This document shows, piece after piece, positions 31,754 to 47,828 of a DNA stretch of 64,000 bases (position 1 is the first letter of the stretch; every line of letters begins with the position of its first letter). A model generated the notes under the pieces. The model had not been told where the DNA came from. It did no database searches and was given only the letters and a program-made list of their open reading frames with translations. Made by a program: the position numbers and the translations under genes. This DNA comes from Longimicrobiales bacterium (GTDB taxonomy: Bacteria; Gemmatimonadota; Gemmatimonadetes; Longimicrobiales; Gaopeijiaceae), in NCBI GenBank assembly GCA_965203485.1, contig OZ241892.1:992001-1056000 (forward strand). Reading direction: 5' to 3'.

Positions 31754-32270
31754 ATGAACGACAGATGCCGACTCTCCCAGCTTGTGTTCGCCGGACTGCT
31801 TTCGGCGGCTTGCCATGCTGGCTTTGCCCCGGTCGCCGGAGCCAGTCAGCTCCCCCTGTTCCCGTGTTCGCTTGGCTTGACGTGGCCGAGGGAGACGTAG
31901 AGGTAGCTGAAGCGTCGGCAATATCCCGGCATCTTGCTGTTGACGCCGACGGCATCGCAACGGACGTCAAGGACGAGTGCGGGCTCCATCTCACGGTGTC
32001 CGTCTTGGCCGACACCTCGCTTCCGCAAGAGCGTGGAGCGCCCTCCATCCGTTCCGATGCGGGCTACTGCCCGAATGGGCCAGCGAGGGCAGGATCACGC
32101 CCAGCAGCGGCGCTCCAGGCGAGATTGACGGAATTGAAGTCACGGTGTGCAAACTCAGGGGCGAACGGGTGGTTTACTTCGAGACTGACGCCATGGGCAG
32201 GGCGACCTTTATCTTTCGATGCGACTACGGTCCCAACTGCAAGCCACGCCCCCACCTGGTGAACATGTAA
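31754..32270 (+). pseudogene. cassette D: secreted Cys-containing protein, paralog of 40101-40577, two frameshifts
   Basis: MNDRCRLSQLVFAGLLSAACHAGFAPVA leader; GAPSIRSDAGYCP/EWASEGRITPSSGAPGEIDG...CDYGP; the second shift is CCC vs CCCC; promoter TTGACG-N16-TACGTT at 31639-31666. Confidence 0.8.
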
Positions 32271-33427
32271 TGCACGACCGTTCGAAACAAGGCGTGGTGA
32301 TGCGCATTGGACGCGGCGTTGTTGTTGCATTGGCGGCTAGTGCGCCGGAGACGGCAGCACAACAGATTCTGGAAGTGGACATGGACGCCGGCCGAGAGCT
32401 CGTCGGCGGGATCGAGTACCTGTTCGACTCCAGAACCGCGGCGGTGGACTACGACCGGCGGCTGGTGTTGGTCTCGGAGGCTGCTGATCCACTGGCCGTG
32501 ACGGCCTGGTCCTTGGACGATGGTTCGGTGCGGGACGTCTTCGGGGGTGGCCGGCCGGGCGACGGCCCGGGCGAACTCGCAGGGGTGCAAGCGACGGCCG
32601 TGGGGCCGGACGGCGTCTTCGTGGCGGGATTCGGCAGGGTGCTTCATTGGAGTTGGTCGGGCGCCCTTCTCCATCAATGGAGGCCGACGGCGCCGGGAGC
32701 GCATGCCGTGTGCGCGTTGAACAGCCGTCCGGCGGTCCCGTTGCATCCGAGGGGTCTGGTATTTCGTGGCGACGACGGCGAGAGCGTTGCGTTGGGCGGG
32801 GAAGCCAGCGCTCGGTTGGACTGGGACCGGAAGCGGCCTGACGATCTCCTCTCCAGCTATTCCGCCTACAGTTCAACCTTGATGACATGTGCGGACTCTG
32901 CCGCATACGTGCTGCACAGCGCTGGCCACACGCTCACGGAATACAAGACGAGAGCGGAGCCGCGCTTGATCGCAATGCCCGCGGAGTTGGCGGAAGCGGC
33001 ACGCAAGAAGATGGAGTCTTCCACGCAGAACGCCTTTTCTTCTGGATACTCCCAACTGTTCTTGGCCGACGACGGTCGGCTCGTCGTCATGACGAAGGCG
33101 TACGGGTTGGCGGGAGCTGTGGTGGACCGGGCGACGGGTTGCTACGCGCTGTTGAAGAACAAGCCCGATCCGCCCGTCTGGAGCTACGTCGGGATGTTTG
33201 CCGACAGCCTCGTGACGCTGGAGGGCAGCCGGCAACCGACGACGATGGTTGTGGACGGGAAGGAACGCCGCGTGTTTGTGGGGGACGAGACGCACATCTT
33301 CGTGCGCCCGGTTCGGCCCGCCTCGGGCGTGCCCTGCGACCCCGGCGGCCTGGCGGCGTTCGTGGAGTTCGGCGATCTGGACGTGCCGGCCGTGGTCGCG
33401 CGCAGGTTGCCGGCCGAAGTGCGGTAG
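32270..33427 (+). CDS. beta-propeller protein, paralog of 40579-41625, with a chimeric C-terminal tail from the 24994-26604 gene type
   Basis: QQILEVDMDAGRE, PGDGPGEL; tail [27 protein letters not shown]. Confidence 0.8.
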   Translation: MHDRSKQGVVMRIGRGVVVALAASAPETAAQQILEVDMDAGRELVGGIEYLFDSRTAAVDYDRRLVLVSEAADPLAVTAWSLDDGSVRDVFGGGRPGDGPGELAGVQATAVGPDGVFVAGFGRVLHWSWSGALLHQWRPTAPGAHAVCALNSRPAVPLHPRGLVFRGDDGESVALGGEASARLDWDRKRPDDLLSSYSAYSSTLMTCADSAAYVLHSAGHTLTEYKTRAEPRLIAMPAELAEAARKKMESSTQNAFSSGYSQLFLADDGRLVVMTKAYGLAGAVVDRATGCYALLKNKPDPPVWSYVGMFADSLVTLEGSRQPTTMVVDGKERRVFVGDETHIFVRPVRPASGVPCDPGGLAAFVEFGDLDVPAVVARRLPAEVR

Positions 33428-33871
33428 CGAGCGTGTCGACGGGCGCTCCCCTTGCGTGGGCTCGCCGGTCCGTGGACGCCGTGCGGATCAGGGCCCCGGC
33501 TTTGCGGGCGGTCGGCGTTGCGATCCTCTTGGGCGGCCTTTCGTGGCGACCTTGGCCGTGGCTGGCTCGGCGCTTTGGGGCTGGACGATGCTCTGGTCCT
33601 ACGTGGAGCAGGCCGCGGCCCGTCGGGGTCGCGCGGCCGGCGTCCCCGGTCCCCTCGTCTCTCGCCCGCGAGACGGAGTTCCCGGCCGGGTCGCGCGGCC
33701 CCGCCGGGGGCTCCGCTCGACGGGGCTTTCGGCGGCCCTTCCGGAGCCGCCGCCGCCCGAACGGCGGCCACCGGCGGCGCCGCGGAAGTCGAATCTCGCA
33801 AAAACGCTTGTTCAGCAACGTGAATTGGCGTTTTTCGCCCCCGTGGCGAGGCGTTCTCCGTGCCCCGCAAT

Positions 33872-33984
33872 TTGCCAATTGCGGATCGATTGCTCAACTT
33901 GCTTGGTCCGTGACGGAGAGGTGCGGATCGAGAGTGAAGCGCCGGGGGCGGCCCGCAAGGGACCCGTCGGCAGTCGCGGGAAAG
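33872..33984 (+). repeat. promoter plus 5' domain of the large candidate ncRNA (third, partial copy), fused to the cassette B 5' UTR
   Basis: Matches 38659-38771; TTGCCA-N17-CAACTT. Confidence 0.8.
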
Positions 33985-36759: not shown

Positions 36760-38030
36760 TGGAGTTGACCCGGTATGGTGGACGGGCAAGGATCTTGGGT
36801 TCAGGTAGTGCGATGTGAAACATGACTTTGGGAAGGACGGAGGCGCAAGGGCGCCGAACGGCCTCGTGTCGAGGGGGTCGGTGCACCTACGCGACCGCAC
36901 GCTTGCGCTCGAAGCCGGCGGGGATTCGCAGTCGAGCGCCGAGAGTCGGCGCCGCGAGTTGTAGAAGCCTTCGATGAAGGCGAAGACGGCGCGCCGGGCT
37001 TCGGCCGGACTTGTTGAACTGGCAACGGTCGAGCAACTCGCATTCCAACGTGGCGAAGAAGCTCTCGCACATCGCGTTGTCGTAGGCGTCGCCCACCGAG
37101 CCCGTCGAGCGACGCACGCCGGGCTTCCTGCACCGCTCGCCGAACGCCGAGGACGTGTACTGCGACCCCTGATCCGAATGATGGATCACGGTCTCTGGAC
37201 AGCGGTTCTCGACGGCCATGGCGAGCGCGCGCTCGACGAGTTCGCCGCGCAGGTGCGTCTCCATGGCCCAGCCGACGACGCGGCGGCTCCAGGCGTCGAC
37301 GACGACGGCCAGGTAGAGCCATCCGGCCCCGGCCGACACGTGCGTGATGTCGGCGACCCAGAGCTGGTCGGGGCCTTCGGCGCTGAAGTCGCGCTCGACC
37401 AAGTCCGGAGCCGGGCGCGCGTCGGCGTCGCGCACCGTCAGCGCCACCTTGCGGCGCCTGCGGCTCGCGCCCTCGATGCCCTCCTCGCGCATGAGGCGGG
37501 CGACGCGCTTCGAACCGACGCGCTCGCCCCAGGCCGCGAGATCGGCGTGGATGCGCGGCCGACTCGCTTCCCAGCTACGGCGCACCGAGACGCGCAACGC
37601 GTCGTCGCGCAACGCGCTCGCACATCGCGCGCACGGGAAACACGGCCCGGTGCGCTTTCACGAACTCGAACCCTCTCCGGGAATCGAGCCGCTCTCCCGA
37701 GCGAACCAGGCCGCGGCTTTTTTTAGGATGTCGCGCTCGAGGCGCAACTGCTTGTTCTCCCGCTTCAGGCGGCGCAACTCGTCCCGCTCGCGCGTCGTCG
37801 TCCCGTCGTCGCGACGGCCCTCGTCGAGATCGGCCTGCTCGACCCAGTTGCGGATCGTCGGCGCCGACGGCTCGAACTCACGCGCCAGCGCCTCCGGCGA
37901 CCGGCCCGAACGCGCCAGATCCACCATTCGCCGCCGGTACTCCAGCGGGTACTGCTTGCGTTTCTTCGGCATCGTGGACTCCTCCTCGTCCCGAAAGATT
38001 GAACGTGTCCACCATGCCGGGGCAACTCCA
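36760..38030 (-). mobile_element. IS3-family element with both IRs; orfA 37972-37658 intact, orfB degraded
   Basis: TG...CA ends (TGGAGTTGCCCCGGCATGGTGGAC / TGGAGTTGACCCGGTATGGTGGAC); orfA MPKKRKQYPLEYRR...ERDILKKAAAWFA; A7G slippery site 37717-37724; no clear target duplication. Confidence 0.92.
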
Positions 38031-38771
38031 GGTTGTGGACGGGAAGGAACGCCGCGTGTTTGTGGGGGACGAGACGCACATCTTCGTGCGCCCGGTTCGG
38101 CCCGCCTCGGGCGTGCCCTGCGACCCCGGCGGCCTGGCGGCGTTCGTGGAGTTCGGCGATCTGGACGTGCCGGCCGTGGTCGCGCGCAGGTTGCCGGCCG
38201 AAGTGCGGTAGCGAGCGTGTCGACGGGCGCTCCCCTTGCGTGGGCTCGCCGGTCCGTGGACGCCGCGCGGATCAGGGCCCCGGCTTTGCGGGCGGTCGGC
38301 GTTGCGATCCTCTTGGGCGGCCTTTCGTGGCGACCTTGGCCGTGGCTGGCTCGGCGCTTTGGGGCTGGACGATGCTCTGGTCCTACGTGGAGCAGGCCGC
38401 GGCCCGTCGGGGTCGCGCGGCCGGCGTCTCCGGTCCCCTCGTCTCTCGCCCGCGAGACGGAGTTCCCGGCCGGGTCGCGCGGCCCAGCCGGGGGCTCCGC
38501 TCGACGGGGCTTCGGCGGCCCTTCCGGAGCCGCCGCCGCCCGAACGGCGGCCACCGGCGGCGCCGCGGAAGTCACGCGAATCTCGCAAAAACGCTTGTTC
38601 AGCAACGTGAATTGGCGTTTTTCGCCCCCGTGGCGAGGCGTTCTCCGTGCGCCGCAATTTGCCAATTGCGGATCGATTGCTCAACTTGCTTGGTCCGTGA
38701 CGGAGAGGTGCGGATCGAGAGTGAAGCGCCGGGGGCGGCCCGCAAGGGACCCGTCGGCAGTCGCGGGAAAG
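38031..38771 (+). repeat. near-identical direct repeat of 33247-33984
   Basis: Propeller 3' end, downstream spacer and ncRNA 5' domain repeated with few differences. Confidence 0.95.
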
Positions 38772-39164
38772 CCGGAAGCCGGACAGGCTTCGCGCACAAG
38801 GGGAGGGGAGTCCCGTCAGGGACGACCGGCCCTGGACGGCGAGTCTTCCGGAAGTCGGCAGCGCCGGGGAGGCCGGGCGTCGCGTTGCGAGACGCAGGCG
38901 GTGCGGTTCCACGGCGAGCGCGGCATCCCGGTTTCGGCGGGAGCCGCGACGGTTGCAAGGTCGCTGGACGCAACCGGAGTCCCCGGGAACGGGGGACGGC
39001 CCGAGCCGCGGAGAGCGCCGGAGACGGCGAAGGAAGCGGGGAGGGAGAAGAGCACGGAGGACCGTGCCGCTGCACACGGCGGCGCCGAAACGGAGCCCTC
39101 CCGCTCGCCAGCGAGATTGAGCCCCCGGCCGGGTGGTGTGCCTCCCGCCGGGGGCTCTTTTTTT
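38693..39164 (+). ncRNA. candidate large structured ncRNA, copy B (diverged homolog of 44955-45421)
   Basis: Promoter TTGCCA-N17-CAACTT (38659-38687); same helices as copy A; terminator at 39119-39164. Confidence 0.65.
39119..39164 (+). terminator. intrinsic terminator
   Basis: GAGCCCCCGGC...GCCGGGGGCTC followed by T7. Confidence 0.85.
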
Positions 39165-39395
39165 GCGTGCGTTGCCCGTCTGGTCGCCGCGCGTTGTCCG
39201 TCCGCCGGCGGGTTACATTAAACGGCTTGGCTCGAGCCGGTCCTTGGAACCGAACGCGGGGCGGTTCCGTAGTGGAGCGTCCGAAAGCGGCGGGCCGCAC
39301 GTCCCCTTCAACCCGGTCTTCCCCGTGCGGGTTCCCAAACGACCGGCAACACTCGGAGCGCCGCCCTCCTCCTGGGACGGCGGCGAGCGCAACCC

Positions 39396-39647
39396 ATGAC
39401 CGAACCAAAGGAATCCGCCGAGGCCGAGGCCGGCCCGGACTCCCAGACCAGACGACGATTCGACCCGAACGACATCTCTCCGGAGTTCGTTCACGACAAC
39501 TACGGCCTTGAAGAGGCGCTTTGGTTCCTCGCCGGTAGCCCCGGCGGCGACGGGCGCGCCGCGGCGTGGTTTCTCGCCTACGTTGCGGCGTGGCTGGGCG
39601 TGGGTGCGGCCGGCATCCGCGCCGTAGCCGAGCGCCGGGCCACGTAG
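39396..39647 (+). pseudogene. chimeric ORF: diverged rpsA N-terminus fused to a copy of the ABC permease C-terminus
   Basis: RFDPNDISPEFVHDNYG (cf. rpsA RFDPDDISPEFVHDTYG) plus [25 protein letters not shown] (cf. 30591-30733). Confidence 0.85.
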
Positions 39648-39675
39648 GTGCTCCTGCCGTCGCCCGAAAGCGGAT

Positions 39676-39704
39676 TTGACACGCAATGACCGATTGATTA
39701 CCTT
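39676..39704 (+). promoter_or_regulatory. sigma70-like promoter of cassette D', separated from its gene by an ISL3 fragment
   Basis: TTGACA-N17-TACCTT, homologous to the 31639 promoter. Confidence 0.6.
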
Positions 39705-39719
39705 GCCGTAAGATATACA

Positions 39720-40066
39720 GGCTCTTCCCCTGTTTCGGTGGGCGTCGTAGGATGGACAGGAGTGGCGGCGTGACTCTGGGAGCGAGGAGAGCGGATGGAG
39801 ATGCGGGAGTGGGTGGAGCGGCTGATGGGTCTGGGGCCGGAGTGGCGGATCGAGCGGGTGGACGAGGATTCGGAGCGGCAGGACGCGCGGGTGGCGCTGG
39901 CGCGCGAGGCGGGTTCGGCGTTGCGGTGTCCGGAGTGCGGGCGGGCGTGTCCGGGTTGCGGCGGGAGTGGCGGGGGCTGGACGCATGGGGATACAAGACG
40001 TTCGTGGTGTACGACGTGCCTCGGGTGGAATGTCCCGAGCACGGGGTGGTGACGACGCGGGTGCCG
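39720..40066 (+). mobile_element. ISL3-family left end plus truncated transposase 5' part
   Basis: GGCTCTT terminus; LRCPECGRAC zinc finger; WRGLDAWGYKTFVVYDVPRVECPEHGV. Confidence 0.85.
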
Positions 40067-40100
40067 TCTCTCATCTCTCCTCGACAGGGAACTCCCGCCC

Positions 40101-40577
40101 ATGAGTGACAGATACCGACTCTCTCAGTTTCTGTTTGCCGGATTGCTTTCGGCGGCTTTCCAGGCTGGCGTTGCCCCGGCGGCAACTGGAGCCCTTCAAT
40201 CCCCCTCTTCGTTCTTCGTAGGCGCGACGGAAGCGTATGGTGACGTAGGACAAGTCGGTGGTGCGGACGATTGGATGGCGGCCACAAAGGACTTCGTCGC
40301 CGGCGAGCAGCGCGCCCGCACCGAAGACGTTGCGCCCCCGCAAGAGTGTGGAGCGCCGTCCATCCGTTCCGATGCCGCCTACTGCCCCGAATGGGCCAGT
40401 AAGAGCAGGATCACGCCCAGTAGCGGCGCTCCAGGCGAGATTGACGGAGTCGAAATCACGGCGTGCAGGCTCAGAGGCCAGAAAGTGGTTTACATCGAAC
40501 ACCTCTGGTTCGATACCTTTGCTGTCTGGGAATGCGACTACGGCCCATGTGGAACCCGCTCTCACATTTCGCACTGA
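40101..40577 (+). CDS. cassette D': intact 158-aa secreted Cys-containing protein
   Basis: MSDRYRLSQFLFAGLLSAAFQAGVAPAATGA signal; 5 Cys in the C-terminal half; stop two bases before the propeller ATG. Confidence 0.8.
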   Translation: MSDRYRLSQFLFAGLLSAAFQAGVAPAATGALQSPSSFFVGATEAYGDVGQVGGADDWMAATKDFVAGEQRARTEDVAPPQECGAPSIRSDAAYCPEWASKSRITPSSGAPGEIDGVEITACRLRGQKVVYIEHLWFDTFAVWECDYGPCGTRSHISH

Positions 40578-40578
40578 C

Positions 40579-41625
40579 ATGCGCATTTGGAGTGGCGTTG
40601 CTGTTGCGTTGGCCACTGGCGTGCCGGATGGATCGACGCAACAGATTCTGGAAGTGGACATGGATGCCGGCCGGGAGCTCGTCGGCGGGATCGAGTACCT
40701 GTTCGACTCCAGGACTGCGGTAGTGGACTATGGTCGGCGGCTGGTGATGGTCTCGGAGGCTGCCGATCCATTGGCCGTGACGGCCTACTCGCTGGACGAC
40801 GGTTCGGTGCAAGGCATCTTCGGAGGCGGCCAGCTGGGCGACGGGCCCGGCGAACTCACGCACTTGGAGGCAGTGGCCGTTGGATCAGACGGCGTCTTCG
40901 TGGCCGGAAGAGGCAGGGTGCTCCACTGGAGTTGGTCGGGCGTCCTTCTCCATCGATGGAGGCCGACCGCACCGGGAACGAACGCTCTATGCGCATTGAA
41001 CGGCCGTCCCGCCGTTCCGTTGCAGGACAAGGGGGTGGTGTTCCGTGGCGACGACGGCGAGAGCGTTGCGTTGGGCGGAGAAGCCCGATCCGAATTGGAC
41101 TGGTCCGCGGCCTCTAGGCGCGATGACCTTCTCGATATCTTTACCGCCTACGGTCAAGCCAAGGTGGCATGTGCTGATTCGGCGGCATATGTGCTGGCCG
41201 GCATGAACCATGTGCTCACGGAGTACAAGACGGGAGCGGAGCCGCGCTTGGTCGCGATGCCCGCAGAGTTGGTGGAAGCGGCACGCAAGAGAATGGAAGA
41301 ATCCAGCCAGAACGCCTTTTATCCTGGGTACGAGACCCTGTTCCTGGCCGACGACGGTCGGCTTGTCGTCACGACGTTGGCGTACGGGCTGGCGGGAGCG
41401 GTCGTGGACCGGAAGACGGGCTGTTACGCACTGTTGAAGAACAAGCCCAATCCGCCCGCATGGAGCTACGTCGGGATGTTCGCCGACAGCCTCGTGACGC
41501 TGGAGGGCAGCCGACAACCGACGACGATGGTTTTGGACGGAAAGGAACGTCGCGTGTTTGTATCGGACGAGACGCACATCTTCGTGCGCCCGGTTCGGCC
41601 CGCATCGGGCCAGCCCTGTACGTAG
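40579..41625 (+). CDS. beta-propeller protein partner of cassette D'
   Basis: QQILEVDMDAGRE, LGDGPGEL; close paralog of 32270-33427. Confidence 0.8.
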   Translation: MRIWSGVAVALATGVPDGSTQQILEVDMDAGRELVGGIEYLFDSRTAVVDYGRRLVMVSEAADPLAVTAYSLDDGSVQGIFGGGQLGDGPGELTHLEAVAVGSDGVFVAGRGRVLHWSWSGVLLHRWRPTAPGTNALCALNGRPAVPLQDKGVVFRGDDGESVALGGEARSELDWSAASRRDDLLDIFTAYGQAKVACADSAAYVLAGMNHVLTEYKTGAEPRLVAMPAELVEAARKRMEESSQNAFYPGYETLFLADDGRLVVTTLAYGLAGAVVDRKTGCYALLKNKPNPPAWSYVGMFADSLVTLEGSRQPTTMVLDGKERRVFVSDETHIFVRPVRPASGQPCT

Positions 41626-41639
41626 CGGGACGCTCTTCA

Positions 41640-42375
41640 ACGCGGCGCACCGTTGCGTTGTGAGACTGTCTGGAGGGAGCAAGGTTGCGAAACGTTATGG
41701 AACTCGACGAGTTGCACATGCCAACCGTTCCGTCTGGGAAAGCGACTACGACCCATGTGGAACTCGCCCTCACATTTCGCACTGACATGCGCATTTGGAG
41801 TGGCGTTGCTGTTGCGTTGGCCACTGGCGTGCCGGAGGGAGCGACGCAACAGATTCTGGCAGTGGACATGGATGCCGGGCGAGAGGTCGGCCGCACCGGG
41901 AACGAAGGCTCTTTGCGCATTGAACGGCCGTCTCGCCGTCCCGTTGCAGGAGAATGGGGTGGTGTTCCGTGGCGACGCCGGCGAGAGCGTTGCATTGAGC
42001 GGAGAAGCCCGATCCGAATTGGACTGGTCCGTGGCCTCTAGGCGCTGTGACCTTCTCGATATCTCTATCGTCTACGGTCAAGCCAAGGTGGCATGTGCTG
42101 ATTCGACGGCATATGTGTTGGCCGGCACGGACCACGTGCTCACGGAGTACAAGACGGGAGCGGAGCCGCGCTTGGTCGCGATGCCCGCAGAGTTGGTGGA
42201 AGCCGCGCGCAAGAGAATGGAACAACCCAGCGGGAATGCCTTTTATCCTGGGTACGAGGCCCTTCCTGGCCGACGACGGTCGGCTCGTCATCTTGTACGT
42301 TGGCGTACGGATTGGCCGGAGCGGTCATGGACCGGACCATGGGCTGTTACGCGCTGGACAAGCCCAATTCCGCGC
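41640..42375 (+). pseudogene. degraded tandem copy (D''): variant peptide C-terminus plus internally deleted, frameshifted propeller
   Basis: VWESDYDPCGTRPHISH* then MRIWSGVAVALATG...; about 280 bp missing relative to the 40579 gene. Confidence 0.85.
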
Positions 42376-42567
42376 CCGTATGGAGCCACGGCGCGCGCGT
42401 CCCATTCGGCCATGTACGCGTCCCGGTGGGCGTTGCATCGTTTTGGTAGACAGCGACCGACGCGGTTCCTCTCTGCGATCGGGAGCGACCCGAGCCCGTC
42501 CGTGCGGGGACGCCGGGTGACGATTACGCTGGGCGGAAGGTAGCCCGCTGACACCGGAGGAGTGCCG

Positions 42568-42978
42568 ATGAACTTCGAGAATTGGCTTGGGACGCTGACC
42601 ACCGTCGCGATCATGTGCGGCGCGATGCTTGCCTTGGGGCGGTGGCTCCGGACGCAGACGGCGGATCAGATCGCCGTCCTCAAGGTGTCGATGGACCAGC
42701 AGTTTGCCGTGGTGGACCAGCGCTTCGCTGCCGTGGACCAGCGCTTCATTGCCGTGGACCAGCGCTTCGCCTCCATCAAGGAATCCATGGACCGGATGTC
42801 GCGGGAGAACAAGGAGGAGCACGCGGACATCCGGCGGAGCATCCAAGAGGCCACTCGGCAAGTGCTGGGGGTCATGGACCGGCGTTTCGAGGACACTGGC
42901 AAGCGGATGGACGAAATGAGCAAGCGCATCGACGACCTGCGCTCCCACGTCGATGCCGCCGGAGGGAGGGCGGCTTGA
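42568..42978 (+). CDS. membrane-anchored coiled-coil protein, paralog of 20820-21233
   Basis: MNFENWLGTLTTVAIMCGAMLALGRWLRTQTADQ; GTGGACCAGCGCTTC 21-bp tandem repeats; GGAGG RBS. Confidence 0.75.
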   Translation: MNFENWLGTLTTVAIMCGAMLALGRWLRTQTADQIAVLKVSMDQQFAVVDQRFAAVDQRFIAVDQRFASIKESMDRMSRENKEEHADIRRSIQEATRQVLGVMDRRFEDTGKRMDEMSKRIDDLRSHVDAAGGRAA

Positions 42979-42989
42979 GCGCGTCGCCC

Positions 42990-43247
42990 ACGCCGGGCAA
43001 CTCCCCCGGCCGGACGCCGGGACCGCACTGACAACTCCGGGCGCGCCTGCACTCCGGCCCCGCAACCCGAACGCGCCTCGGTGCCAGCGCCACCCGCGCT
43101 TCCTGGCGCTCCGAATCCTCGTCCACCCGCGTGATCCGTCACTCCGGCCGTAGCCCCATCATCCGCTCCACCCACTCCCGCATCTCCAAGAGTCACGCCG
43201 TCCCCCCAGTCCGTTCTACGGCGCCCACCGAAACAGGGGTAAGAGCC
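42990..43247 (-). mobile_element. ISL3-family left-end remnant, inverted relative to 39720
   Basis: Minus strand GGCTCTTACCCCTGTTTCGGTGGGCG...VDEDSERQEARVALA matches the 39720 copy. Confidence 0.8.
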
Positions 43248-43259
43248 GAAGGGCAGGTC

Positions 43260-43610
43260 CTACGGCGCCACGCCGAACAGCACCAGCGGGACCGCCGGCG
43301 TGCTCCTCCCCTGCCGGATCAGGTTGTAGAGCTCCCCTTCGTAGTACCCCGGTCCGGAGGACATCTCCGCCTGGAGTTCCTTCATCGGCAGAATCTCGAC
43401 GCCCACGTCGATCTTGTCGCCGACGAAAAACGCCATGTGCTTGACGAAGATGTCGAACGCCACAAATGCATATTTGCCGAACTGCACTTCGACAGCCACT
43501 CGTTGCTTGACGTAGTCGGTCTGATTGTACGAATAGATCGGTAGTTCGAAGCGATGGACCATCATCCATTCCAGGCCGTTCAGATGGGAGTATCGCTCAA
43601 CAATGCGCAC
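43260..43610 (-). pseudogene. BglII/BstYI-family type II restriction endonuclease, apparently internally deleted
   Basis: YSHLNGLEW...SYNQTDYVKQRVAVEVQFGKY...DVGVEILPMK; only 116 aa. Confidence 0.75.
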
Positions 43611-43612
43611 GG

Positions 43613-44490
43613 CTAATGGCCCCCTCCGGCCAAGGAGGGATCGTATATCGGTTTGTGCATGGGGCGGGTGCGCAACACGCCGGCGTCCAGGTTACGAACG
43701 CGCTGACGGGCGATCTCGACGTACTCGGCGACCACGTCGCAGCCGAAGGCGGCGCGTCCGTGCTTCCGAGCAGCCACCAACGACGACCCAACGCCCATGT
43801 AGGGGTCAAGGACGGCGTTGCCCTGCTCGGTCATGGACAAGACCAGCCGCTCCACGAGTTCGACGGGAAACTGACACGGATGCATCGTCTTCTCGACGTG
43901 GTTGGCCTTTACGTTCGGGATGTCCGAGACGTCCGAGGGATTCTTTCCCAACGGGTTTCCCGACCGCTTGCCCCTGTTCGGCCCCTTGAAGTACTTCTTG
44001 CCCGGATACTTAGAGGGGATCCGAACGGGATCAACGTCGAAGTAGTAATCGTCCGACGTCGTCAACCACAATATCGTCTCGTATCGCCCGGAAAACCGCT
44101 TTGTGCAGTGCAGTCCATGGCCGAAATGCCAGACAATGCGATTGCGCAGTCGCAACCCATGGGACTTGAACACGTCGTACAGCACAATGTCCAACGGAAC
44201 ACCTCGCGGCCGCGCACGTGGTTGCCCACCTGCCAGCAAAGCGATCCCCGCGAATCAAGAACTCGGACGCATTCGGCGATTGTCGCCGCCTGTTCTTCCA
44301 AGTACCGTTCGAGGCTTGTGCGCGTCTCGTATGATTTTCCGATGTTGTAGGGAGGAGAAGTGACGACTAGATGCATCGAGTCGCTGGGCAACGTTGCGAG
44401 AAAGTCCAAGTTGTCGGCGCATTCGATTCTCACGGCTAGGTCGGGGTTGGGGCCGTTCGCGATGTCGGCGCCGAGCAAGTATTGGGTCAA
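43613..44490 (-). pseudogene. site-specific DNA methyltransferase (N4-C/N6-A, beta class), frameshift near 44196
   Basis: VTSPPYNIGK, HPCQFP, VLDPYMGVGS; split over two frames. Confidence 0.85.
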
Positions 44491-44920
44491 TCGTGTCTCT
44501 CCGGTTGGAGCGTCTCGAAAACATCGGAAGGAATGCGCGAACGGTACCAAACGGCCAGGGGCGGGTCAAGGCGGCCGGTCGAATGGAGCGGCGAGTCGCC
44601 AAGACGGGCCGGTCTGCGTGCCGGGCGTGCGCGCGGGGGAGGGCAACGCCGGTCCACCACGAGGCGAGCCGCGAAGGGCGCCGTGGGCGGCGATCGTCAA
44701 CGAGCGCGAGGCCAGGCGGGCGCCGTCGTCGGCCAAACGGGAAACCGAGCCCGTGACGCGAGGAGGGCGTGGCAGGCGTTGCGTGGCGGCTGCCGGGACG
44801 CGGCGGGCTCGCGGCCGCCGGCCCGTCGCCTGCCGAATCGCGGGGATGGGGCGAGGCGTCCCTTCATCCAGCGAGCGAGTTCGCGCGGTGGCCCTCGCGC
44901 GGCTGCCCGTCGCCCTGGAT

Positions 44921-44949
44921 TTGCCATCTGCGAATCGATTCGTTATAGT
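44921..44949 (+). promoter_or_regulatory. strong sigma70-like promoter
   Basis: TTGCCA-N17-TATAGT. Confidence 0.75.
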
Positions 44950-44954
44950 TCCTA

Positions 44955-45421
44955 GCCCGGCGACCGAGGGCGCGGATCGAGAGTGACGCGCCGGGGGCGG
45001 CCCGCGAGGGAAGCCTCGGCAGTCGCCGGACCACGGGAGCCGGAGGGCTTCAGGGAAGGGGGAGGGCGGTCCGAGAGGAACGACCGGCCCCGGAAGGGAG
45101 TCCTTCGGAACTCGGACGCGCCGAGGAGGCCGCGAGCAGCGTTGCGAGACGCGGGGAGCGGGTTCCACGGCGAGCGCGGCGCCCCGATTCGGCGGGAGCC
45201 GCGACGGTTGCAAGGTCGCTGGACGCAACCGGAGTCCCCGGGAACGGGGGCGGCCCGGACCGCGGAGAACGCCGGAGACGGCGGAGGAGGCGGGACGGGA
45301 GAAGAGCACGGAGGACCGTGCCGTCGCACACGGCGGCGCCGAAACGGAACCCTCCCGCTCGCCAGCGAGACGGAGCCCCCGGCCGGGCGGTGTGCCTCCC
45401 GCCGGGGGCTCTTCTTTTTTT
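44955..45421 (+). ncRNA. candidate large structured ncRNA, copy A, unknown class
   Basis: Bounded by a promoter and an intrinsic terminator; more than 10 hairpins with GNRA/UUCG loops; structure retained in diverged copy B; no credible ORF. Confidence 0.7.
45373..45421 (+). terminator. intrinsic terminator
   Basis: GAGCCCCCGGC...GCCGGGGGCTC followed by TTCTTTTTTT. Confidence 0.85.
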
Positions 45422-45530
45422 GCGCCTTGTTCGCGCCGTCGGGTTACATTTGACGGCTTGCTCGTTGCCGGTCCCTTGGAACCGAAGGCGGGTCGGTTCC
45501 GTAAGTGTCCGAAGGCGCTTGGCCGCACAT

Positions 45531-45549
45531 CCCCCCCCCCCCCCCCCCC
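45531..45549. repeat. poly-C tract (19 nt) in the rpsA leader
   Basis: Seen directly; the homolog at ~39302 has only CCCCTT. Confidence 0.9.
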
Positions 45550-45638
45550 TCAACCCGGTCTCCCCCGCGCGGGAATCCAACGGACCGGCGAGAAACACCC
45601 GGAGCGCCGCCCTCCCCGGAAGGCGGCGAGCGCAACCC

Positions 45639-47828
45639 ATGACCGAGACAAGGGGTCCCGCTGGGGCCGGCGCGCGCCGGTCCCGGCCCGCACCGCGATT
45701 CGACCCGGACGACATCTCTCCGGAGTTCGTCCACGACACCTACGGCGAGGAAGTCCTCGACATCTCGAGCGACGCCTTCGAGGCGATGCTCGCCGAGCAC
45801 CAGACCGCGCGGGGCGACATCCGCGAAGGGGAGATCGTCAATGCCCGGGTTCTCCGGGTGACCGACGCGACGGTGATCCTCGAGTTCGGCTTCAAGAGCG
45901 AGGGCGCGGTCTCCATCGACGAGTTCAAGGACTCGGACGGCGTGGAGCCGGGCCAGGAAGTCGAAGTTCTGCTGGAGAGCCTGGAAGACGACGACGGCGT
46001 GGTCGTCCTTTCCAAGAAGAAGGCCGACTTCCTGCGCGTCTGGGAGCTGATCCGCGACGCCTACGAGAACGACCGGCCGGTCAGCGGTCTCCTCACCCGC
46101 AAGATCAAGGGCGGCGTGACGGTGGACATCATGGGGGTGGACGCCTTCCTTCCCGGTTCGCAGATCGCCCTTCGGCGGGTGCCCAACATCGAGGACCGCA
46201 TCGGGGAGACCTACGACTTCAAGATCATCAAGCTCAACAAGCGCCGCCGCAACATCGTCGTCTCGCGCCGGGTCATCCTGGAGCAGGAGCGCAAGGCGAA
46301 GCGCTCGACGCTGGTCAAGGAGCTGCTGAAGGGCCAGGTCCGGGAAGGGGTCGTCAAGAACATCACCGACTTCGGCGCCTTCGTGGATCTGGGCGGCCTG
46401 GACGGCCTGCTTCACATCACCGACATGTCGTGGGGCCGCGTGGGCCACCCGTCCGAAGTGGTGGACATCGGTGCGACCCTGGACGTCAAGGTGCTGGACG
46501 TCGACTGGAACCGCGAGCGCATCTCGTTGGGGCTCAAGCAGCTCCTCCCGTATCCGTGGAACGACATCGCCGACCGCTACCCGGTGGGCGCGCGCGTGCG
46601 GGGCAAGGTCGTCTCGATCACGAACTACGGCGCGTTCGTGGAGTTGCAGAGGGGCGTCGAAGGGCTCGTGCACATTTCCGAGATGTCGTGGACGAGGAAC
46701 GTGCGCCATCCCTCCAAGCTGGTGTCGGTGGGCGACGAGATCGAAGCGGTGGTCCTGCGCGTGGACCAGAAGGAAGAGAAGATCTCGCTGGGCATGAAGC
46801 AGACGGAAGAGGACCCGTGGCTCGCCTTGCCGCAGAAGCGCCCGCCGGGCACGCGCCTGTCGGGGACGGTCCGCAACCTCACGACGTACGGCGCGTTCGT
46901 CGAGATCGAGCCGGGGATCGACGGCTTGGTCCACGTGTCCGACATGAGCTGGACGAAGCACGTGGAGCACCCGTCGGAAGTGGTCCGCAAGGGTAGCCAG
47001 ATCGAAGTGATGGTCCTCGAGGTGGACTCGGACAAGAAGCGGGTGTCGCTCGGCGTCAAGCAGCTCGCCGACGATCCGTGGCCCGATCTGGTGGTGCGGT
47101 TCTCGGCCGGGGTGCAGCTGGACGCGACCGTGGTTCGAGTGCGCGACAAGGGCGTGCTCGTCAACTTGGGCGACGACGTGGAGGGCTTCGTGCCGGCCGC
47201 TCGCGCGGGCGTCGACTCGGGCGTGCTCGGCGAGCACTTCCGGGCGGGCGAAACCGTGGCCGTGCGGGTCGTGACGGCCGACGCCGGAGAACGCCGGATC
47301 GACCTTGAAGTCCTCGAGGCCCCGGAGCGGCGCAAGGCCGGTCCCGCTGGGGACGCCGCGGGAGACGACGAGGCGGCGGAGGAGGCCGGGACCGGGAAGA
47401 CGGCGTCCGAGCGCAAGGACGGGGAACCGGAAGAAGCCGTTGCGGGCGGAGAAGGCCGTGAGGGCGACGCGACCGCTCCCGTTCCCGAGGATTCGGAGCC
47501 GGAAGGAGCGGCCGCGGACGGAAAGGGCCGTGAAGACGGCAAGACCGAGTCGGCTCCTGAGGATTCGGAGCCGGAGTCCGAGACCGACGTTGCGCCCGCG
47601 CCCCTGGCCGACGAGCCGGAGTCCGAGGCCGAAGCTGCGGCGGTCCCGGAGGTCGGCGAGCCCGGGAGGCCCGAGACGGACGCCGCGGCCGATCCCCATC
47701 CGCCTGCTCCCGAGGATGCCGAGCCCGGCGGTGGGACCGCCGAAGCCGCCGAGAACTCCCCCGAGGCCGACGACGGCTCCGGTCGGCAGGGAGAGGCCGA
47801 CGCCCCCGCCGGCGAGCGCGGCGGCTAG
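45639..47828 (+). CDS. rpsA: 30S ribosomal protein S1 with long acidic C-terminal extension
   Basis: Repeated S1 domains (AFLPGSQI, ITDFGAFVDLGGLDGLLH, GLVHISEMSW). Confidence 0.97.
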   Translation: MTETRGPAGAGARRSRPAPRFDPDDISPEFVHDTYGEEVLDISSDAFEAMLAEHQTARGDIREGEIVNARVLRVTDATVILEFGFKSEGAVSIDEFKDSDGVEPGQEVEVLLESLEDDDGVVVLSKKKADFLRVWELIRDAYENDRPVSGLLTRKIKGGVTVDIMGVDAFLPGSQIALRRVPNIEDRIGETYDFKIIKLNKRRRNIVVSRRVILEQERKAKRSTLVKELLKGQVREGVVKNITDFGAFVDLGGLDGLLHITDMSWGRVGHPSEVVDIGATLDVKVLDVDWNRERISLGLKQLLPYPWNDIADRYPVGARVRGKVVSITNYGAFVELQRGVEGLVHISEMSWTRNVRHPSKLVSVGDEIEAVVLRVDQKEEKISLGMKQTEEDPWLALPQKRPPGTRLSGTVRNLTTYGAFVEIEPGIDGLVHVSDMSWTKHVEHPSEVVRKGSQIEVMVLEVDSDKKRVSLGVKQLADDPWPDLVVRFSAGVQLDATVVRVRDKGVLVNLGDDVEGFVPAARAGVDSGVLGEHFRAGETVAVRVVTADAGERRIDLEVLEAPERRKAGPAGDAAGDDEAAEEAGTGKTASERKDGEPEEAVAGGEGREGDATAPVPEDSEPEGAAADGKGREDGKTESAPEDSEPESETDVAPAPLADEPESEAEAAAVPEVGEPGRPETDAAADPHPPAPEDAEPGGGTAEAAENSPEADDGSGRQGEADAPAGERGG

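Follow-up and report, generated by a model that had tools for sequence, protein, structure and literature searches.

The 64,000-nt stretch of a Longimicrobiales bacterium (phylum Gemmatimonadota; contig OZ241892.1, positions 992,001 to 1,056,000) analyzed here, below called the window, contains directly upstream of rpsA a segment of about 465 nt that appears rich in helices, which raises the question of whether it specifies an RNA in its own right or serves the expression of the neighboring ribosomal protein gene. Judged by its sequence, the interval 44921-45421 on the forward strand is a stand-alone gene for a noncoding RNA (ncRNA) of about 465 bases. A putative sigma-70-type promoter, TTGCCA-17-TATAGT, occupies 44921-44949 and is the sole promoter-like site across 38000-46000, where 0.4 would be expected by chance. 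The predicted transcript, a long form of about 463 to 467 nt, spans 44955-45421 and closes with a terminal hairpin and T-run (45372-45421), as would an intrinsic terminator. Both signals had been claimed in an earlier reading of this DNA, the original prediction, and both are in place, hairpin and T-run finishing at 45421. The high degree of structure claimed there is borne out as well: all 20 helix strings that it listed are present, and upon folding, the 467 nt, with a G+C content of 75%, were more stable than 100 out of 100 dinucleotide shuffles (z = -4.46), the second copy at 38693 also exceeding its shuffles (z = -3.37).

BLAST over 61 genomes returned one full homolog, in a congener (G001), plus short matches to one 27-nt stem-loop. 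The order's 301 scanned genomes include 73 with this core motif, at most three mismatches being allowed, and none with its reversed control. The 3' 260 nt of the window RNA constitute the family core, for which a 237-nt covariance model, not including the long-range pairings described below, was built from 50 order-level sequences, the window's own among them. The model matched 93 of 151 order genomes that are at least 95% complete, with one to five copies each (61/97 in the bacterium's own family, 29/33 and 2/20 in the other two), and 25 of 151 phylum genomes at E ≤ 0.001 (four marginal); all model searches used this one order-level model and scored 14 to 54 candidates per genome, and misses are not absences. 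Three genomes, G056, G217, and G270, are counted in these tallies and left out of the alignments. On the strength of these matches, the family is carried by most near-complete genomes of the order Longimicrobiales. A pattern scan of named genomes yielded at least 121 loci, and 106 among the matches listed were confirmed as full length by the model: 95 titled Gemmatimonadota, 10 Steroidobacteraceae or Gammaproteobacteria, and 1 bacterium without a group name. The model did not confirm the 15 listed loci outside both groups, in Actinomycetota, Burkholderiales, Chloroflexota, Rokubacteria, and others. Metagenome records, those listed all being longer than 1 kb, gave 74 full-length confirmations among 80 listed loci. 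None of 40 viral pattern loci was confirmed, and no plasmid or phage match to the RNA was found. A profile made solely from the 74 members found in metagenomes, none more than 65% identical to the 44955 locus, found this locus at E = 7.7e-17, and in the whole genome it matched only the two window copies (E about 1e-17). The label "lineage-specific" in the original prediction accordingly holds for the 463-nt length, which is genus-specific, but not for the core, which is class-wide and reaches Gammaproteobacteria; its placement among large ncRNAs of the OLE/ROOL/GOLLD size class is supported by homologs, by covariation, and by a promoter and terminator whose positions are conserved.

Rfam 15 at the gathering threshold gave no match in the window, and at E ≤ 10 the locus and six homolog loci, of which four are short forms, returned terminator-like noise only; the OLE, ROOL, and GOLLD models matched neither the window nor any of these loci, and the raiA model did not match the window RNA. 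RNase P (256.5 bits) and transfer-messenger RNA (156.5 bits) were located elsewhere in the genome, as was a weak below-cutoff match to the signal recognition particle RNA; the original prediction had been unable to match the segment to these, or to 6S or T-box RNAs. The 6S and Ms1 models had no match in the window's genome. A published description of the RNA was not found in the literature searched, which left subscription journals and two large supplements uncovered; the main text of PMC11109978 holds none, and the small supplement of PMC8632094 gave no match. We class the RNA as a new family inside a known broad kind, outside all families described so far.

The family fold is a chain of hairpins without a 5'-3' closing stem. 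In the window form, it starts with a lineage-specific 5' expansion (44957-45114), represented by three sequences with 80 to 81% identity between forms, in which a three-way junction (44957-45029) is followed by a hairpin, long and irregular (45034-45114), and which carries GCGA and GAGA loops. A hairpin with a GCGA loop (45119-45172) is the probable positional counterpart of the second hairpin of the short forms. The core continues with helix PA (45175-45203), helix PB (45205-45231) with a near-invariant 13-nt loop, helix PC (45234-45251) with a GGAA loop (45241-45244) that is palindromic in most short forms, and helix PD (45254-45299), where a GAGA hairpin (45270-45283) is inserted at the place of the short forms' PK-a loop. 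The helix PE junction (45304-45360) encloses hairpin PF (45320-45337) and is followed by the strand CCAGCGA (45362-45368) and the terminal hairpin. In alignment A5, comprising 100 model-aligned members with 56% mean identity, 19 helix pairs, all of them standard and located in PA, PB, PC, PD, PF, or the terminal hairpin, beat 40 out of 40 tree-simulated nulls. Paired cells amount to 93.5%, compared with 34 to 47% for slid controls, and 48 of the 51 named pairs change on both sides. Helix PE forms in 92/100 members, with a score of 16.2 for its own partner versus 11.6 for permuted ones, and displaces GCACGG/CCGTGC and the distal closing helices proposed originally. The family does not support GCACGG/CCGTGC, GGTTCC/GGAACC, and CGGCG/CGCCG, nor the C-TTCG-G tetraloop and GGAGCC/GGCTTC as a separate hairpin; the strands of all of these pair locally or in a pseudoknot. 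The covariation seen earlier between the two window copies is thin, as in the 5' region two-sided changes affect 4 of 85 pairs among three sequences, the only ones on which the 5' 200 nt are based, but the family helices do covary.

These data bear on the simplest alternative, that the segment is a GC-rich spacer or degenerate repeat without an RNA function. DNA of 75% G+C folds easily, and the RNA is known here from its sequence alone, but compensatory changes extend over more than 100 diverged sequences, and the core is 94% identical to the copy of the congener, whose flanking genes are 74 to 86% alike. We regard the spacer explanation as hardly credible and largely refuted.

Beyond these helices, three long-range pairings, which the original prediction missed, occur in the window form (PK-b, PK-c, and PK-d), and a fourth, PK-a, is restricted to the short forms. 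PK-b joins TTCGGC in the PA loop (45188-45193) to GCCGAA in the PE junction (45338-45343), has at least 5 bp in 91/100 members, and includes swaps such as CTTGGA/TCCAAG and GATCAG/CTGATC. PK-c joins TCGCTGG in the PB loop (45216-45222) to the CCAGCGA strand at 45362-45368 and has at least 6 bp in 98/100 members, one position being G-C in 94 and A-U in 5. PK-d joins GCACAC in the PF loop (45326-45331) to GTGTGC in the terminator loop (45390-45395), with at least 5 bp in 64 of 78 rows and a flip GTGTGT/ACACGC; it takes the loop of the terminator and leaves its stem intact. PK-a, between a 5' loop and the PD loop, is lacking in the window form; of 89 short forms, 84 have it with at least 5 bp. 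Duplex scores of own versus permuted partners were 16.8 versus 13.6 for PK-a, 14.8 versus 12.2 for PK-b, 19.0 versus 18.5 for PK-c, and 13.6 versus 10.6 for PK-d. Each of the four, and PE, lay above 5000 of 5000 partner permutations, with the strands taken from alignment columns, while six non-partner controls did not. In an earlier anchored version, which misplaced the partner strand in many rows, PK-a and PK-b beat the permutations and PK-c and PK-d did not.

The PK-c duplex GGUCGCUGG/CCAGCG is near-invariant, and its unpaired neighbors are conserved in sequence, too. The PB loop and its partner strand are 94 to 100% invariant, unpaired G residues included, in an alignment of 56% mean identity. 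Such conservation could indicate that the PK-c core is catalytic or binds a ligand, making the RNA a ribozyme or a trans-acting sensor. There was, however, no match to a ribozyme or riboswitch model, and across the loci no consistent neighbor points to a substrate or ligand; we judge this rather unlikely.

If the RNA were a cis-acting attenuator or riboswitch governing read-through into rpsA, as was also proposed, its position relative to this gene should recur. In the window genus it does lie directly upstream of rpsA (45639-47828, forward strand; six stretches matching Pfam S1), on the same strand and with the terminator in between. However, rpsA is a neighbor of the RNA in this genus only: among 30 rpsA loci examined, most of which have cmk upstream, an intact RNA precedes the gene in 2 and a broken one in G002. 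Elsewhere, as far as gene names can be read from translations, the neighbors are rplU-rpmA upstream with a convergent chorismate-mutase-like gene downstream (about 20 loci), lipB upstream (13 loci) with convergent rnhA (16 loci), or, in Steroidobacteraceae, a LysM gene (6 loci) and a threonine-synthase-like gene (10 loci). A convergent gene follows the RNA in both of the largest context groups (about 20 and 16 loci), and no constant same-strand position upstream of related genes, as expected of a cis-regulatory leader, was found across the loci. In addition, PK-d occupies the terminator loop without disturbing the stem, and rpsA has its own candidate promoter (45420-45450, TACATT at 45445-45450, imperfect -35 spacing); a similar site precedes the gene in 23/29 loci, although the candidate itself is absent from the list of promoter-like sites in the 38000-46000 scan. 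Because the neighboring genes vary between lineages, we rejected the attenuator, which appears very improbable; rpsA is a neighbor only. As a separate matter, the rpsA leader (45451-45638) has conserved elements of its own, a GCCGGTCC...GGACCGGC helix and a CAACCCGG motif, found upstream of rpsA in many relatives; it is possibly an uncatalogued S1 autoregulatory leader.

Most members are about 280 to 305 nt long, the window genus having the longest form seen, with the 5' part expanded. Promoter-like TTG...TA..T sites sit upstream of the core at distances fixed by lineage; among 123 instances, 71 hits fell at 40-59 nt, 10 at 70-89, 26 at 120-139, and 3 at 200-219, suggesting transcript classes of about 280-305, 312-322, 358-372, and 463-472 nt. 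A promoter score of at least 12 was reached at 29/145 loci, two of the 145 being non-members, compared with 1/124 shuffled ones. No open reading frame (ORF) is common to the family: core lengths fall in all three frames, and 65/145 loci lack a closed ATG ORF. The RNA is usually single-copy amid housekeeping genes, and its synteny is kept inside lineages. Upstream of the homologs' -35 box, motifs are conserved by lineage (CCGAAAGAC-like and CAGGGAWTTCCC-like, e.g., at L010, L101, L141, and L182), which may be regulator sites. Tandem or nearby paralogs lie 0.6 to 2 kb apart at L125, L087/L227, L106, L107, and L131, and those scanned each have a promoter-like site.

Which known RNA does the new family resemble most in kind? 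The raiA motif, in the part of PMC12968392 available to us, is a stand-alone RNA with a conserved 5'-3' closing stem P1 and two pseudoknots, and the available part of PMC11706538 describes the abundance and trans action of ModT. Set against these partial accounts of raiA/ModT (RF03072), the window RNA is alike in being a stand-alone gene with a housekeeping-type promoter, in its pseudoknotted conserved core with optional peripheral stems, and in that synteny is uninformative in both. The compact core is matched in kind only, since the topology differs. As those accounts have it, raiA occurs in Bacillota and Actinomycetota and has the closing P1 and two pseudoknots, whereas the window RNA lacks a closing stem, its 3' end being a local terminator hairpin that covaries internally, and has three or four long-range pairings, one using the terminator loop. 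Further hallmarks of the raiA motif RNA are an abundance and stability like those of rRNA and the binding of KhpA/KhpB.

OLE, ROOL, and GOLLD form homo-oligomers free of protein. OLE RNA is linked to OapA, and ROOL and GOLLD are often associated with phages, prophages, or tRNAs. Neither type of association was seen here: no dedicated partner gene adjoins the window RNA, the window has no tRNA, and the family search found no phage or viral member. According to the excerpt of PMC12286853 at hand, the L9.3 loop of OLE, which switches among the palindromes GGCC, GAUC, and AGCU, provides a symmetric dimer bridge, and the switching serves as evidence for a symmetric kissing loop; in ROOL and GOLLD, covarying long-range loop pairings partly proved intermolecular, with GNRA/A-minor contacts and variable 5' regions. 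With OLE as described in that excerpt, the new family shares a large ornate structure, and in 67 of 120 short forms its PC loop holds a palindrome, switching among the same ones; it differs in that the window RNA is shorter, gave no Rfam OLE match, and in its long form lacks the palindrome. With ROOL and GOLLD as presented there, it has in common the covarying long-range loop pairings, GNRA loops, and a variable 5' region, but the window RNA is smaller, chromosomal, and without an Rfam match to them. The smtA motif, also called Soda Lake RNA, is likewise an orphan RNA of large size (more than 350 nt) that covaries and belongs to a narrow lineage; as far as the consulted part of PMC11109978 goes, it is confined to Thioalkalivibrio, upstream of smtA, and this description would set it apart from the window RNA.

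Another possibility, which we consider unlikely, is an RNA-polymerase-binding RNA acting as a functional stand-in for 6S or Ms1 (RF00013, RF02566). The gene is free-standing, sometimes with paralogs, the RNA has an Ms1-like size, and Rfam 6S found no match in five out of five Gemmatimonadota genomes (G000, G060, G078, G375, and G475). On the other hand, 6S and Ms1 form a long hairpin with a central bubble, as depicted in the portion of PMC9130861 that we used, and this feature is not in the family fold, a multi-hairpin chain. One gammaproteobacterial genome, of the Steroidobacteraceae, carries canonical 6S plus the knotted RNA, and the Ms1 model found nothing in the window's genome, a weak test given that it also missed four actinobacterial genomes. 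A supposed resemblance to Ms1 was dropped as unsupported. The 6S equivalent of Gemmatimonadota may itself be undescribed.

A contact between RNA molecules is suggested by the PC loop, which carries a palindromic 4-mer in 67 of 120 non-redundant short forms, compared with 33.5 ± 4.7 in shuffles (maximum 48 in 2000 shuffles); a rougher count gave 73/125 versus a mean of 44. Nine palindrome types occur, GATC, AGCT, AATT, GGCC, ACGT, and GTAC among them, with 18 parsimony switches, and none of five other loops tested exceeded its own shuffles. By analogy with the OLE dimer, the PC loop of the short forms is a possible RNA-RNA dimer contact. The window form has, besides GGAA in the PC loop, four GNRA loops at 45004, 45073, 45144, and 45275, and these GNRA loops might replace the lost palindrome and PK-a contacts.

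Taken together, we lean towards a stable trans-acting, probably self-assembling scaffold RNA like raiA, OLE, or ROOL. Comparison shows the hairpin chain tied into a compact core by the three long-range pairings, four in the short forms. The terminator loop would be docked in the fold by PK-d, shielding the 3' end, and with the surface of its invariant core the RNA might bind some cellular partner that is itself widely conserved. The RNA may self-associate, in the short forms via an OLE-like palindromic kissing loop, and the long form, having lost the palindrome and PK-a, has acquired a 5' extension rich in purines and, with it, five GNRA loops, which would serve as replacement packing. By comparison with raiA/ModT, OLE, or ROOL, its most likely role would be that of an abundant structural or scaffold RNA tuning physiology, presumably dispensable and able to move between genomes.

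Several points weigh against this scaffold reading. The expression, ends, abundance, and partner ascribed to the RNA are all predictions. As A5 was fitted to the nested structure, helix counts are favored, and a structure-free alignment retained only 2 pairs at E ≤ 0.05. The permutation tests ignore relatedness, and in a tree-aware test no single pseudoknot pair was significant (best E = 1.35); PK-d is clear in no more than its 64 of 78 rows, 22 long-insert rows having been dropped. The palindrome is missing in 53 of the 120 short forms and in all seven long forms, including the window's, and about 6 of the 67 palindromes sit in an extended stem. Finally, 58 of the 151 order genomes of at least 95% completeness gave no match to the core model, and the copy in G002 is broken.

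A bolder version, which we hold to be doubtful, is a protein-independent self-assembling RNA particle with the terminator built into its tertiary fold, swapped assembly contacts (a palindromic kissing loop in forms of about 290 nt versus a GNRA-rich extension in forms of 360 to 465 nt), and a portable core activity new for RNA. If this were true, the activity of the particle core would have stayed functional when the RNA passed from Gemmatimonadota to Gammaproteobacteria. Few large ornate RNAs are known from bacteria, and for several of them recent work has revealed dimers or cages made of RNA alone, whose purpose is unknown; the RNA described here adds a further, non-homologous family from a widespread bacterial order, in which one core occurs in natural forms of graded length (about 285, 320, 365, and 465 nt). 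This series, the palindrome/GNRA switch at a single loop, and the cross-phylum transfer permit direct in vitro tests of assembly state and core function without host culture.

The history of the locus involves further copies, all on the forward strand. A second complete copy with promoter (38659-39164; -10 box CAACTT, compared with TAACTT in the congener G001) was already noted in the original prediction as a diverged copy at 38693-39164 and is 86 to 88% identical to that at 44955. Both copies are covered without differences in contigs from four runs of one study, which has no bearing on expression. The congener has one copy, directly upstream of an intact rpsA. To this copy, the one at 38693 is 98.1% identical and the one at 44955 87.5% (core 94.2%); the corresponding values are 96.4% for the rpsA fragment that follows the 38693 copy and 89 to 93% for the intact rpsA over its conserved part. 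Most flanking genes are 74 to 86% alike between the two genomes, the upstream DNA at about 18.5 to 33.5 kb partly 86 to 95%. Most simply, the 44955 copy appears native. Because of its 98% identity to G001 against 74 to 86% for the flanks, the 38693 copy is read as an import, which probably arrived recently with a G001-like segment, broken inside rpsA; the direction of transfer follows from identities, not from a tree. The opposite assignment, with 44955 as the incoming copy, was reversed by the comparison with G001, and an in-place paralog fits less well than horizontal import. The imported segment includes the rpsA leader and the first 37 or so codons of rpsA (39215-39506, interrupted at 39506). 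Part of it is duplicated at 33247-33984 (98.8%), adjoining an insertion sequence (IS) element; a truncated third copy, promoter plus the first 75 nt or so (33870-33984), lies within this 98.8% duplicate of 38031-38771. A 3'-end relic of an older tandem copy (38445-38497) is duplicated at 33661-33713 and present in G001, too. The third copy and both relics had been overlooked before.

Outside the phylum, the Steroidobacteraceae copies share one context, and the exact motif occurs in 3 of 301 genomes of this family, all known carriers; 30 near-match loci in the same genomes were not confirmed, and when one such copy was compared by BLAST with 251 genomes of its order, the copy itself was the sole match. 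Because of the shared context and the rarity, which is to say from patchiness and not from a rooted test, the sequences point to one transfer out of Gemmatimonadota into Steroidobacteraceae.

These movements raise the possibility of a semi-selfish or defense-linked mobile RNA module that persists through transfer and duplication, not through a housekeeping role. Relocation between lineages, tandem copies, relics, the decay in G002, the probable import beside a restriction-modification pair and an IS, and the passage into Gammaproteobacteria would all fit. Yet the RNA usually stands alone between housekeeping genes with synteny kept within lineages, the viral, plasmid, and phage searches yielded nothing, and no recurring transposase, reverse transcriptase, or toxin neighbor was found across the loci, so that we consider a mobile module quite unlikely and the scaffold RNA the better account.

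As to the surroundings, a BglII-family restriction endonuclease gene and a DNA methylase gene lie side by side at 43260-44550 on the reverse strand, the methylase seemingly split over two frames (its halves match Pfam N6_N4_Mtase, at 44062-44550 and 43613-44239). An IS element at 36760-38030 encodes an integrase core and HTH_Tnp_1, is IS3-type by reading, and has at least 8 copies of about 92% identity elsewhere in the genome. Short repeats at 39505-39648 and 39720-40067 recur in the genome and begin exactly at the break of the imported rpsA fragment. Multicopy proteins of about 400 to 450 amino acids, without a Pfam match and with several paralogs in the genome, are encoded at 32219-33427 and 40258-41625. 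Elsewhere in this genome, 17 tRNA genes are clustered on one strand (G000:C1:2694800-2696932).
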